Shown piece by piece: positions 11,583 through 57,826 of a stretch of 64,000 bases of DNA (position 1 is the first letter of the stretch; the number at the start of each line of letters is the position of its first letter). The stretch covers positions 16,368,001-16,432,000 of the forward strand of contig NC_043012.1 of the NCBI RefSeq assembly GCF_006345805.1, written 5' to 3'. Origin of the DNA: Octopus sinensis (taxonomy: Eukaryota). The notes beneath the pieces were generated by a model. That model was given only the letters and a program-made list of their open reading frames with translations, made no database searches and was not told the origin of the DNA. The translations under genes were made by a program, and so were the position numbers.

Positions 11583-11629
11583 AACACAACGTTTCGGCTG
11601 ATATACTCTCCAGCCTTCATCAGGTGTCT
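11583..11629 (-). ncRNA. Minimal type-I hammerhead ribozyme inside a SINE
   Basis: Reverse complement GACAC-CUGAUGA-A-GGCUG(GAGAGUAUAU)CAGCC-GAAAC-GUU-GUGUU: canonical core, 5-bp stems I and II, palindromic AACGUU in place of stem III. Confidence 0.85.
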
Positions 11630-17043: not shown

Positions 17044-17365
17044 TAGTTTTATTTTTATAATGTGCTTTCAGTTCACTACCGAGCGCAGCTCTGTGTGCCT
17101 TGGGTATGTGCTGTGATTTGTTGTGATGCTCTTATGGTTACTGTATTGAAAATGTTTTGCGTAGGATGTGTGCAGTGCCCAGTAGTGCAATTTTCTGTAT
17201 GTTATATATATTTGTAAGTCCTTGTGTCTTAAATTTTTTTATCATACCTAATGCGCCTACTATGATAGGAATTGTTTCTGTTTTTAGATTCCACATTCGA
17301 GTTACCTCTATTTCCAGGTCTTTGTATTTTGAAAGTTTCTCCATTTCTTTTAGAGACATGTTCTC
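17041..17365 (-). mobile_element. R4/Dong-like LINE 3' fragment (restriction-like endonuclease C-terminus)
   Basis: KEMEKLSKYKDLEIEVTRMWNLKTETIPIIVGALG...IQKIALLGTAHILRK matches the K..KY.DL / PI.VGALG motifs of RLE-type elements; (TAA)n on both sides. Confidence 0.88.
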
Positions 17366-17379
17366 ATTATTATTATTAC

Positions 17380-17412
<33 letters not shown>

Positions 17413-17827
17413 AATGAGGTAAATCCGAGGCGTGGTTATGCTAGTTGAAAATTATTATTATTATTATGAAAGTGTAGAAACTGAATTACGTTGCTGGGAC
17501 ATTCATTCTGTTTAACGGAATTAGCAGCAAAAAATGTGTTGCATATACACAAATTGATGACGTTTGTAAGAGCAAGAAAATAACGAGAGGTTATGGCGGG
17601 CATATTCTTCCTGAGGTTATCAAAGATGGATGATTGATGTCTTCGTGTCTATTGACGCCATCTTCATCATCATCATCATCATTCCCACCACCATTGCCAA
17701 TACATTAAGTTGAAGCGAATAATGGATGGTTATGGCGCTCATATCTTTCCTAAAGACATTGGCAACGGTCGCATTGATTTCTTAAATTGGTGTGTTCTCT
17801 GTTGCTGTTGCTGGTTGTCGTTGTTAC

Positions 17828-23357: not shown

Positions 23358-24070
23358 CGAGGTTCGATCAATAAGTATCCGGACTGTTGCCGTAGTAACG
23401 AAGCTAAAGCATGCAGAGTAAAGCTGCTTCGTACAAATTGATCTTGAACTCTGTTGTGCATGCGCACTAAGTTTTACCGTTCTAGCACACTTCTGTTGTG
23501 CTTGGAAGGAAGGTGTGTAGCGTGTGATTGTCGCGTTGACCGTGACAGAGAAAATTGTCATGGCGACACATGCTCAGAGGCCTACGCAAATTTTCAGAAA
23601 GCGTATGGAGAGGAATGTATGTGCTGTACACAAGTGTACGTGTGGGTCAGACATTTCGAAGATGGCCGACAAAATGTCGATAGTGACGAACGTTCTGGGA
23701 GACTCGCAACCAACAGAACTGAGAAAACAGTGCAGCTGTACGTGCAGCTGTGAGGGGAAGTCGTCGAATCATCATCCGTGAGTTATAAGAGAATGTGCGA
23801 ATTAGTTACGGTTCAGTTCAGTCCATTATCACTGAAGATTTCGGTATGAGACGCGTGCCTACCAAGTTTGTGCCAAAAACAGCTTTCAGCTGATTAAGAA
23901 GACTCACGGGTTTCAGTTGCACAAGATCTCCTTGATTGTGTTGAAAACGATGAAATTTTTTTGCAAACTTTGCGTAGGCTTCTGGGCCGGTATCACCAAG
24001 CTTTTGGCAGAATTTGAGGCAGATTCTCTGCTCAACTTCCTCTGTGTGTTGCGAAATGAATTTGACAGAT
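23358..24070 (+). mobile_element. Mariner element, 5' part (TIR plus HTH region, pseudogenised)
   Basis: TA-CGAGGTTCGATCAATAAGTATCCGGACT TIR-like start; FQKAYGEECMCCTQVYVWVRHFEDGRQNVDSDERSGR is typical of the mariner N-terminal HTH. Confidence 0.85.
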
Positions 24071-39424: not shown

Positions 39425-39558
39425 GATATAGTATAACATTTCTTTCGGGAAAAATTTTTTATCAATGGCCAGCATATCAAAAAATGGCTTTAAAGGTAAA
39501 GTTTACACATAATTTACAAAATAAGGGCAAAGAAAAATTCTAATGCCAGATACGCCGA

Positions 39559-39599
<41 letters not shown>

Positions 39600-40858: not shown

Positions 40859-41016
40859 TAGTAACAGAGACAGTATTAATACCGACGTAGCTACTTAGAC
40901 GTGAATGTTCCGTTAGAACAAACTATACTGCGGCAGATACCACAAGAGAAAGTTCCACTCTGGATTTGGTACAAAATGCGGGGAGATAAATCCTTGCCAT
41001 CTCCACGACTGAGAGC

Positions 41017-41059
41017 ACCAGAACATGTGGTTTCGACCTTCCTTGGTCTCGTCAATGAT
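41017..41059 (-). ncRNA. Degenerate type-I hammerhead motif
   Basis: Reverse complement AUCA-UUGACGA-GACC(AAGGAA)GGUC-GAAAC-CACAU-GUUC-UGGU; C3U change and one extra nucleotide at the cleavage site. Confidence 0.6.
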
Positions 41060-41209
41060 AGACGTCCGACTGCTAGAGACAGCAGCGATTCATACCCCGC
41101 CCATGATATATAGAATTATAGTGCCAGAACAGGCGCTGGTGTCGCGATTAGCCAGTGAACTTCTTAACATACATACGTACATATATGTATATATATACAT
41201 ATGTGTGTG

Positions 41210-44540: not shown

Positions 44541-46091
44541 GAAAGAATTATTCACCAACGAAGACTATAGCTAGTTTCCTCGAATCCAACTGTTTTACTA
44601 AAGCAATATTGACTTTTCTATACATCTAGTGTTCTTAGAGACCTACATATACTTTGAAAGTCGTTCCAAGTTTTCACAATCACAACCGGATGTGAAAATG
44701 AAAATAAAAAAAACACTCTACATATGCTTTTTATTGCATTGAAAAATTTGCTAAATCAGATAAAAAAAAAAAGACGTTTCACTGATATATTGCAGACTAA
44801 GTTGTATCAGCATTCGTTCGTTAAAACTCACGTGTTTTATAAGCAGACTTTGCTAAGAGAGTGTTGCTGATTGTTGTTGTTGCTGATTGTTGTTGTTGCT
44901 GTAGTTGTTGTTGCTGTAGCTGCTGCTGGTCTTGTTACTGCTACTACTAAGGCCTTGTTGTTTAGCGCAACGTGGAGACGAATAATCCGACGTGATTTCA
45001 GACATAGTACGTCTTGAACTACATGTGCCCTGCTTTGTTTAAAACGGAAGGAAGTCCTTTTAGGGAGCTCTAGCTGATACATTGCTTTATCTACCATATT
45101 CAACAACTGCCATAAGACATCTCTTTTAATAGTCAGAAATCAGGAGGTACTTCCGGTCTTTGTTTTATTGTCTATTTTTGTTTTTTGTTTTTCTTAAATT
45201 AAATATACTAATCAACAAAGAGACATTCTGTATCTCATTCTGAGGAAACAATAGAAAAATAAAGTGCCTGATTCTCTTCTGCAGGCTGGCCAACGCATAG
45301 AAAAAGAAACGATTTACCTTAGGTACACCTCAGCTACAGTACATACGGTTAAAAGCTTGAAAACACCCGTTGCTCACACTTGGCCGTCTTCCATCTTTCT
45401 CTTCCTCACGTGATCATCCTTCTTTTCTTTCAGGACTGTCGTAATGACAGCACGTATCCTATCTCTCTCTTCTATTTTTTTCTCTTGTCAAAGAAAATAT
45501 TTCTCCAGTGTTCGCTATTTTACCCTCGCTCTGGTCTAACGACCCTCCATTTTAGCTTTCGTTCGGTTTCCTTCTATGTCTCCACTGTCCTGTTTTTGTT
45601 CCTAACTTCGACCCTCCATAAGTCCCAAGTTTTATTTTGGCAGTTATGGGAGCAACTGTCTTCAAAGACTCTATTGTCATTAAATGCTCGAAATGAAGAA
45701 TAGACAGACAGTTGACAATTGAGGAAGTGTCGTTCTTTATGTTACTTGTCCTGTTTTCCATTTGTTTCTCTCGTTATTTGCGTATTGAACTAATTTGTTT
45801 TCATATTTCATGTTGTTTACTGTTTGTGACGTCCCGTACCCATATATACATACGTATGTATATATATAATATATATATATATATATTATAATATATATAT
45901 ATATATATTATATATATATATATAGATATATATATATAGTCTATACATATATATATATATATATTTCTTTATATGAGTTCGTGTGTTGAAGCATATTCTA
46001 TTGTGTCTGGGGAGAGTCATTTTCTTTTTGTGCCTCACCGGTAAAATTTACTCACCGGTAAAATTTCCACGTTTTTCTTATTTTTATTGTC

Positions 46092-46128
46092 CTAAAATTT
46101 TCGTTGCGTCTTGCAACCTTTTCAATAG
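46092..46128 (-). ncRNA. Minimal hammerhead motif with U3:A8 core covariation
   Basis: Reverse complement CUA-UUGAAAA-G-GUUGC(AAGAC)GCAAC-GAAA-AUUU-UAG. Confidence 0.6.
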
Positions 46129-46305
46129 TTTTGACTTTCTTATGAATTAACACCGAAATTGGGACCAATACGGTTATAACGGAATTTTTTTAGAAATTTC
46201 TATCGGCATGTTCCGAGATGCATAAATTATAATGGTTATTGACAATTTTGTATTTTTTTCGGCATATTTGGCATTAGAATTTTTCCCTTTACCTTATTTT
46301 ATAAG

Positions 46306-46375
<70 letters not shown>

Positions 46376-46410
46376 TATATATATATATATGTATGTATAT
46401 ATATATATAG

Positions 46411-46591
46411 CTGGACCCCACCTACAAAGTCATGCGCTGGTAGTTTTGATATGATATCACATGTCGCGCACATATAGTTGTGATGCATGTGCCTGGTGTA
46501 CCCTTATCAGACGGGTAGTCATGGTAGGTATACAGAGCTTCGTATATTTTACCCCAGTGTCACTTTGATGGCATGCACTGCTCTCTCACTC
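46411..46591 (+). mobile_element. 5'-truncated copy of the 47300-47801 element, followed by (AAT)n
   Basis: Shares GATGCATGTGCCTGGTGTACCCTTATCAGACGGG...GCACTGCTCTCTCACTC-AATAAT. Confidence 0.85.
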
Positions 46592-46603
46592 AATAATAAT
46601 ATC

Positions 46604-46674
<71 letters not shown>

Positions 46675-46680
46675 TAATAA

Positions 46681-46942
46681 TATGAGAATGATCCCTGGCT
46701 TACCATCCCTGCAAGAAGTGCAAAAGATTGTCTTAACTGGTACATCACACGTATTGAGAAGAGCATTGTCGATGTGAGAACTGTTGCTGCTCATGTATTT
46801 TAATTTAACTTTAAAAAAAAAAATGAACGAACTACTGAGTTTGGTTTAATGGCCTACCAATGTATACTATGAGTTTCTTTGCCCTAGGAGTCGGGAAGAC
46901 ACTCGGCAAGAAATGGAAGCAAATTTGAAAGAAGAAAAAAAA
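46681..46942 (+). mobile_element. R4/Dong-like LINE extreme 3' end
   Basis: RMIPGLPSLQEVQKIVLTGTSHVLRRALSM* plus 3' UTR, between (TAA)n tracts. Confidence 0.75.
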
Positions 46943-46965
46943 GTAATAATAATAATAATAATAAT

Positions 46966-47223
46966 ATGAAAACAATTGTGCTTATAATAATTGGTGCAGT
47001 GGGAACTGTAAGCAAAGATATTGACAAATGGTTGAAGGAGATTGGAATAGAATGTCTTGTAGAGCTTCTACAGAAAGTTTGTCTTTTAAGGACAGCAAGA
47101 ATTATCAAGGTTCTAAACACTTGGAAGACAGACGAAAACTTGTGGATAACTAAGGTTACAGGCTGTAACCTGTGACCCCTCCATAAATCCTACCAGGAAC
47201 AAGACCGAACCTAAGCCAAACCA
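46966..47223 (+). mobile_element. R4/Dong-like LINE 3' end, another family
   Basis: IIIGAVGTVSKDIDKWLKEIGIECLVELLQKVCLLRTARII, between (TAA)n tracts. Confidence 0.8.
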
Positions 47224-47299: not shown

Positions 47300-47801
47300 G
47301 GAAGTGTTATCATGTACATTGTTTTGTCTTGGTATAAAAGATGGGCTACAGCAAATATTCTGCTCAATATCACAGATTTGCTTGTCAGTTGTTTGACCTT
47401 AACCAGTTGAGCATGTCCCTTGGTGGCTGACGATATGTGCATCTCTGATCACGAGCAGAAGTAGTTGGGGAGCATCATAGCCATGTGTTGAGAGGGATTC
47501 TTTGGGGTTTGAATAATTCACCTCTGGAAACATGGGTGGTTCTTTCAACATCCTTAAACAACCCTTATTCAGGGACCTTTTGAGCGGGATGGGCTACTCA
47601 ACCTGAAGAAAATTCTAACTAGGCCCCACTTGCAAGGTCATGTGCTGTTTATCTTGATATGAGATCACAATATCGCGCACATATGGTTGTGATGCATGTG
47701 CCTGGTGTACCCTTATCAGACGGGGAATTCTTGATGGGTATACTGGGTTTCGTATATTTTACCCCAGTGTCACTTTGATGGCATGCACTGCTCTCTCACT
47801 C
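47300..47801 (+). mobile_element. Non-coding (TAA)n-inserted retroelement 3' segment
   Basis: (TAA)n on both sides; the shorter copy at 46411 shares the identical 3' end, a 5'-truncation pattern. Confidence 0.75.
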
Positions 47802-47870
<69 letters not shown>

Positions 47871-47936
47871 AAGAAGAAGAAGAAGAAGAAGAAGAAGAAG
47901 AAGAAGAGAAGAAGAAGAAGAATGATAATAATAATG

Positions 47937-56731: not shown

Positions 56732-57826
56732 GTGTCTTTGTGTAACTCAGTGACATGTTAACCATATAACAGGCTCCACATCCCGCCCCCTCAGATAGTA
56801 TAGCCTAAAATTTCGAGATATCTTAATTCATCACTCAACTACTACTACTACACACACACGCACGCACGCACGCACGCACACATCTTATCTTTTGCTTCTA
56901 CAATACTGCAAATGTCGCACTGTCCATGATACAGAAGTAGCAACATATAGCAGACATATTTATTTAGCTGGTTAGTTAGCTATCCATCTAGCTAGCCAAC
57001 TATATATACATCTATCCATCTACCTTCCTCTCTATCTATTTGTACGTATATCTGTCAATCTAGCAACATATTAATCCATTCATTCATACATCTACCTACT
57101 TACATGTCTGCCCGTTTATCTACCGACATATTCATCTGTCCATCTATCTGTCTATCTAAACATCTATCCAGCTCGCTATTTGACTGTCCCTCTATCCATT
57201 TATGTATTTATTTACCTATCTTTCTATCTAACTCCCTATTTATGCATTTGTCTGTCAATCAACGTATCTTGCCATCCATTCACCTATCTAAATATGTATC
57301 TTTTTATCCATTTATCTACACACATATTTATCTGCCTGTCTATGTATCTATTCCTCCATACACTTAGTTATCTATCCATCTATCTATTTATTCATCTATC
57401 TATCTATCTAAACAAAATCGAATACACATACACAATGTGTGTGGGGGTGTTAGTTCACGGGTCGGCTGCGTTTTTTAGGCGTAAGAGAATATATTCTCAA
57501 TGCGCCTAGTGTTAAAAACACCTGAAAGTAAGTCATAGACAAGCGAGACAACTCACACCAGGTCCCTTTCGGAGCGACAGACATCAACGTTTCGTCATCG
57601 TTGTGATTTTTCACAACTTTTCACGAACAAGGGCTGCTGCAAGCTATATCGCTGACTATGACTACATGCTAAATGGTTTGAAAACCATCTACCTACATAA
57701 CGAATGAAAACAAACATAACCCAAAATGCCAACATGCTATTTATTCTCTGTTGTGTTCGCTACCTTCCCTGTCTGGGTGAGGTCTTTAACAGTGAAGGAA
57801 ACTGGATGAAACCAAACCGGAAAGTA

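Follow-up and report, generated by a model that had tools for sequence, protein, structure and literature searches.

A U3-A8 minimal hammerhead motif in a high-copy dispersed repeat of Octopus sinensis and its probable Penelope-like origin

Introduction

A hammerhead-like motif on the minus strand of an Octopus sinensis contig carries U3 and A8 at the two core positions that are otherwise occupied by the tertiary pair C3-G8, and this raises the question whether the double change marks one decayed copy or a whole ribozyme family. The motif was studied within a 64,000-nt stretch of microsatellite-rich, animal-type DNA, referred to here as the window. The swap itself has been known since 2011 and its presence in Penelope-like elements since 2014, and the octopus locus contributes a very high-copy, multi-species new example of a U3-A8 minimal hammerhead. 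In the accessible passages of the cited literature, we found no published assay of this minimal combination. With thousands of copies available, selection on the core can be tested site by site, and the four combinations at positions 3 and 8 offer a clean bench test.

Anatomy of the motif

The 37 nt at 46092..46128 (minus strand) form a minimal type I hammerhead motif whose core carries U3-A8, as judged by the letters, the fold and the match to a structural descriptor. The 5' arm of stem I (CUA, 46128-46126) pairs over 3 bp with its 3' arm (UAG, 46094-46092). Core box 1 (46119..46125) reads U3 U4 G5 A6 A7 A8 A9, with U3 at 46125, A8 at 46120 and A9 at 46119, and is followed by an extra unpaired G (46118) between A9 and G10.1, which could alternatively be read as G10.1 followed by a bulged G. 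Stem II comprises 5 bp (GUUGC, 46117-46113, with GCAAC, 46107-46103) around the 5-nt loop 2 and opens with the G10.1-C11.1 pair (46117 with 46103). G12, A13, A14 and A15.1 (GAAA, 46102-46099) lead into the palindrome AAUU (46099-46096), which contains U16.1 and would form stem III between two molecules, and U17 is located at 46095. According to hammerhead numbering, the cut is predicted between 46095 and 46094.

The catalytic boxes are thus complete, including a Watson-Crick 3-8 pair (U3-A8), G12-A15.1, U16.1 and U17. The preliminary description of the locus had listed the UUGAAAA core, stems I and II, the GAAA box and the palindromic AAUU, all of which we recovered on the reverse complement of 46092-46128; the extra G at 46118 was absent from it. 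Its statement that U3-A8 is a known and tolerated swap for C3-G8 agrees with the passages of Perreault et al. (2011, PMC3088659) considered here, which report several natural U3-A8 hammerheads and cite earlier in vitro activity. These hammerheads share the compensatory 3-8 change with the octopus motif, but the same passages do not deal with minimal dimeric Penelope-like motifs.

The descriptor allows any Watson-Crick 3-8 pair and was written after the motif had been seen. It has two matches in the window, the motif at 46092-46128 and a C3-G8 motif at 11623, and no match in 300 dinucleotide shuffles of the window searched on both strands. Because the descriptor was built post hoc, the shuffle result speaks only for the non-randomness of the shape. 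When a 61-nt stretch was folded, stems I and II formed the minimum-energy structure (z -2.38, with 5 of 200 shuffles equally good), with pair probabilities of 0.99-1.0 in stem II and ~0.6 in stem I. Taken by itself, the AAUU duplex is predicted to be unstable (+2.2 kcal/mol); the preferred pairing is a longer one, AAAAUUUU (8-nt A4U4, -1.4), which would occupy core bases. The predicted dimer lacks stem III, and secondary-structure energies disfavour the active dimer; the canonical motif at 11623 misfolds likewise. The extra G and the A-U-only stem III suggest that cleavage activity is probably low. A review of hammerheads (PMC3705267) mentions, in its relevant passage, major detrimental effects of a G inserted at the place equivalent to 46118 in a viroid hammerhead, and dimers of a Schistosoma minimal hammerhead are described as cleaving poorly (Cervera and De la Pena 2014, PMC4209133).

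A search of 45970-46300 against Rfam returned no hammerhead family at E<=10 and three unrelated weak matches. For the whole window, the Rfam matches to miRNAs were driven by microsatellites and stayed below the gathering scores (among the 150 of 256 matches listed), and they were discarded. A pattern of core plus stem II was also searched in metagenome contigs, prokaryote genomes and viral contigs. It had no match in the prokaryote genomes and none in the viral contigs; five metagenome contig matches were rejected as chance, none of the five having the AAUU palindrome and the stem I arm after GAAA, or the flanks of the repeat.

The repeat that carries the hammerhead

According to contig tables, the motif belongs to one copy of a repeat spanning about 45965-46136 (minus strand). 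The repeat ends at its 3' side in a (TA)n microsatellite (45860..45964), which is the likely insertion target, and the hammerhead lies ~125 nt upstream of this tract in RNA sense. Part of 45965-46300 is carried by 20 of the 24 listed runs (10 studies, 4 organisms). Four runs, one per organism and study, were compared at 80% likeness with variants listed from 2% upwards, and 8 runs guessed to be RNA were left out of the contig comparison. Between 6,313 and 17,249 contigs matched per run in all four runs, and the depth was highest over 45965-46136, which identifies the repeat as high-copy and dispersed. The summed depth divided by the single-copy depth amounts to 4-8 x 10^4, a ratio that is not a copy number.

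Upstream of 46136 in RNA sense, other copies share ~20 nt or more before they diverge, and 46136 is therefore the truncation point of this copy. A BLAST search of 45960-46300 against the window revealed no second copy of the hammerhead repeat, the window copy being single and not tandem. Opposite-strand joints at 46122-46136 were present in a minority of contigs (1-11 per joint and run, among the joints listed), and the 3' loose ends before 45993 were TA-rich in all four runs, with an agreement of 0.44-0.45. For Penelope-like elements, the consulted part of PMC8557442 describes microsatellite targets as well as inverted 5'-truncated partners. The opposite-strand joints and the (TA)n end fit such insertions, although, (TA)n being so plentiful in this genome, the tract next to 45965 is an unspecific feature.

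This copy also has a 14-nt replacement of its own at 46036..46049, which is a local duplication (46034-46049 repeats 46051-46066); it is marked by a dip in depth, with loose ends at positions 46035 and 46050, and other copies have different letters at 46036-46049. A different and less abundant repeat adjoins the hammerhead repeat at 46137-46300 and runs into (TA)n, and the end of this second repeat has another copy at 39518-39559 (86% over 43 nt).

Positions 3 and 8 across the family

The state of the family was deduced from the contig variant tables of the four runs and not from a direct alignment of genome copies. Among the rows listed, no variant was present at 46125 (U3) or 46120 (A8) in any of the four runs, and the sole change inside 46092-46128 was in loop 2 at 46108 (16-21%, four runs). 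At 46000, 46071 and 46089, the other letter was the majority, with 79-99% of the depth, and the method thus detects departures of this copy from its family. At 46089, the minority letter of this copy is predicted to extend stem I by 3 bp (46133-46135) beyond a 4-nt A bulge, an extension that is absent in the family majority. In two runs, X2 and X6, all three A>G places were listed and none of them is 46125, which places C3 below 2% in these runs. G8 is probably below ~11% of the family, as judged from the weakest rows listed, which reach this share in their best run. The depth ratio fell to 0.50-0.54 in the bin 46121-46132, which holds U3, and clipped variant copies around U3 are possible; a similar drop is seen near any end of a compared stretch, and the loose ends listed lie behind 46129 and 46136, beyond the core. 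U3-A8 is the family-wide state of the repeat.

The preliminary description had allowed for two private transitions in one old copy, with a family consensus of CUGAAGA, and the variant tables of the four organisms speak against both. Its suggestion of covariation within the family is not borne out: neither position 3 nor position 8 varies, and the contigs of the four runs revealed no C3-G8 sister that shares the flanks. The lack of such a relative points to one inherited double change rather than to covariation within the family, and the invariance at 3 and 8 is explained by descent from one master copy.

Whether the double change was compensatory was assessed by the chance that two hits among 11 invariant core positions fall on 3 and 8 and restore the pair. 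Under neutral decay this chance is 0.007-0.11, depending on the mutation bias, which favours compensation, though as a single after-the-fact event. None of the 32 sites in core and stems was polymorphic, compared to 1 of 5 loop sites and 7 of 88 sites outside, and the difference between core and stems and the outside was not significant (p=0.19). Selection for catalysis may have acted on this repeat family.

Comparison with known hammerheads

Every single feature of the U3-A8 motif has precedent. Minimal hammerheads (min-HHRs) are characterised in the accessible part of Cervera and De la Pena (2014) by four features: a large consensus family, an insertion of one base between positions 9 and 10.1, G10.1-C11.1, and a palindromic 15.2-16.2 (PMC4209133). 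The octopus motif has one unpaired base between A9 and G10.1 (the G at 46118), G10.1-C11.1 at the opening of helix II, no stable helix III with a palindromic 15.2-16.2 (AAUU), and a large consensus family genome-wide, according to the contigs matched in all four runs, which are not a copy count; helix I is short, with 3 bp. We counted this match with the four features for a Penelope-like reading.

The Penelope-like element Cercyon of S. mansoni is among the closest known systems. The same study reports that U3-A8 replaces C3-G8 in the min-HHRs of its pLTRs, with about 1,300 hits that are mostly single motifs (PMC4209133). Row 4 of S. mansoni shares with the octopus motif the UUGAAAA core, the base between A9 and G10.1, G10.1-C11.1, a 2-nt palindromic insert, a 3-bp helix I and U17, and both occur mostly as single dispersed motifs in large families. 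In contrast, Cercyon has an inserted A, a 6-bp helix II and an ACGU palindrome, where the octopus repeat has an inserted G and AAUU. The Cercyon motif is also linked to an RT-endonuclease element and has, in S. japonicum, a similarly flanked counterpart with C3-G8; neither a linked ORF nor such a sister was found for the octopus repeat. In the 56-row alignment of that study (Fig. S3, counted by eye), U3-A8 is present in two rows and U3 with G8 in one; the inserted G is found in one row (Nasonia) and AAUU in one (Crassostrea), the >80% consensus at the inserted base is H (not G), and no row is from a cephalopod. The motifs assayed in the passages of this study were a C3-G8 motif of Schistosoma, that of D. 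virilis and one fungal example.

The Crassostrea gigas PLE min-HHR shares the 3-bp helix I, 5-bp helix II, 5-nt loop, AAUU and U17 with the octopus motif and is the sole row of the 56 to do so, but it has a canonical C3-G8 core and an inserted A (PMC4209133). In Drosophila Penelope, three rows have near-identical helix II arms, GGUUGC ... GCAACC compared to GGUUGC ... GCAAC in the octopus repeat, yet a C3-G8 core, an inserted C and a longer palindromic stem III; this likeness over 11 letters may be due to chance. The anole Poseidon PAc hammerhead lies, like that of the octopus repeat, in a pLTR a short way upstream of the element 3' end and at an AT-rich target, but it has a C3-G8 core, was tested in vitro and belongs to a known autonomous element (PMC11167929). 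According to the consulted part of that report, it cleaves only with the element's protein, and the pLTR end serves as the ORF start. In the octopus copy, a 19-codon ATG frame (46020-45964, minus strand) continues past the repeat's 3' end and may, by analogy with Poseidon, represent a candidate ORF start.

The combination of features and the family itself were not found in print. Lunse et al. (2017), who treat hammerhead variants associated with Penelope, stood outside this comparison and may cover the family. A paper on Octopus vulgaris repeats (PMC13282606) makes no mention of a hammerhead, and the motif was absent from the one supplement checked.

Origin and proposed mechanism

The anatomy of the motif, its high copy number and the family-wide U3 and A8 are observed, and we infer from them that the repeat is of Penelope-like origin, that selection once acted on the 3-8 pair and that the RNA would be cleaved as a dimer. 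We consider it probable, at roughly 0.72, that this copy is the 5'-truncated 3' remnant (pLTR) of a Penelope-like element, with a ribozyme that cuts weakly, as a dimer or with the help of a protein. The motif would be a minimal type I hammerhead as in the pLTRs of animal Penelope-like retroelements, in which the tertiary pair C3-G8 was exchanged for U3-A8 once, in the master lineage and before the family spread, so that the copies inherit it. The window copy would have been inserted at the (TA)n tract as a non-coding, 5'-truncated copy. In the RNA of the master or of tandem copies, two motifs would pair through AAUU to form stem III, U3-A8 taking the place of C3-G8, and cleavage would follow U17, at a low rate and probably only when an element protein or a different chaperone assists. 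The single window copy most likely persists as an inert passenger. After filtering for length and complexity, 186 stop-to-stop frames of the window remained, 79 of them within ~3.5 kb of the U3-A8 motif or within 1-2 kb of the one at 11623 and 107 elsewhere, and Pfam identified a RT or GIY-YIG domain in none of these; single truncated motifs are the rule in the accessible account of PMC4209133.

A more far-reaching version of this proposal appears doubtful. It holds that the repeat ranks among the group's most abundant short repeats, present in at least four organisms and built around a working hammerhead that unites U3-A8 with the inserted G and a stem III made of A-U pairs alone, all three of them likely to reduce its rate, and that would remain below activity until copies pair or an element protein intervenes, in thousands of transcribed places and with a U3-A8 origin independent of the flatworm elements.

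Unlikely, though to be taken seriously, is the idea that the ribozyme was already dead in the master, owing to the extra G, the all-A-U stem III and the 3-bp stem I, and that U3 and A8 are ordinary fixed transitions in a repeat that spread without cleavage. C>T and G>A are indeed the commonest changes among the copies (13-15 and 6-14 places per run), the chance of the double hit reaches up to 0.11, and no loose end was found at the cut site among those listed. Moreover, catalytic mutants of the anole element still insert in vitro and no RNA-seq reads start at its cut site, as stated in the consulted part of PMC11167929. However, apart from positions 3 and 8, the invariant core has kept its letters (9 of 11 positions), as have G10.1-C11.1 and the palindrome, and the CpG formed by C11.1 and G12 is free of listed variants, whereas the loop site 46108 varies at 16-21%. 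The same U3-A8 double change also arose in Schistosoma elements (PMC4209133).

That the repeat is a retrozyme-like or SINE-like non-autonomous RNA is very unlikely. Animal retrozymes consist of tandem units with a canonical type I hammerhead, whereas the window copy is single and its helices are minimal. In this case, the hammerhead would cut multimers to unit length, possibly yielding circles, and no full Penelope-like parent would be needed. The unit is short, non-coding and very high-copy, with a hammerhead near one end, and most classical type I hammerheads of animals reside in non-autonomous retrozymes, according to the passage available from PMC7229834. Against this stand the min-HHR rather than canonical helices, copies that reach upstream of the core instead of beginning at the cut site, and the inverted joints. 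Finally, a chance look-alike or two private transitions in an old copy of a C3-G8 family can practically be dismissed, even though this copy has changes of its own (the majority rows at 46000 and 46071, the 46036-46049 duplication), given that no variant is listed at 46125 or 46120 in any of the four runs, the C3 share below 2% in X2 and X6, and the absence of the shape from 300 shuffles.

Other features of the window

The second descriptor match is a minimal hammerhead of another repeat family at 11583-11628 (minus strand), with the canonical C3-G8 pair, an inserted A, a 6-bp stem II, an ACGU palindrome and a 5-bp stem I; frames near it gave no Pfam match to a RT or an endonuclease. At about 41015-41060 (minus strand), with N3 at 41055, a hammerhead-like remnant combines U3 and G8 with a 4-bp stem II and GAAA and falls outside the full descriptor. 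A hairpin followed by a GAAACGUU box at about 57575-57632 (minus strand) may be the decayed hammerhead of yet another family.

Short frames beside (TAA)n tracts are present at 17138-17440, 46484-46777 and 46888-47175. We take them to resemble the C-termini of restriction-like-endonuclease LINEs, e.g. Dong/R4; Pfam gave no match of this kind. The frame at 23448-23750 (plus strand) weakly matches the HTH domain of the Mos1 transposase (PF17906), at an E of 0.00048 that misses the curated cut-off, and is a probable mariner remnant. Another short repeat, which ends in (TAA)n, is present in two copies ~1,209 nt apart, at 46408-46685 and 47616-47895.
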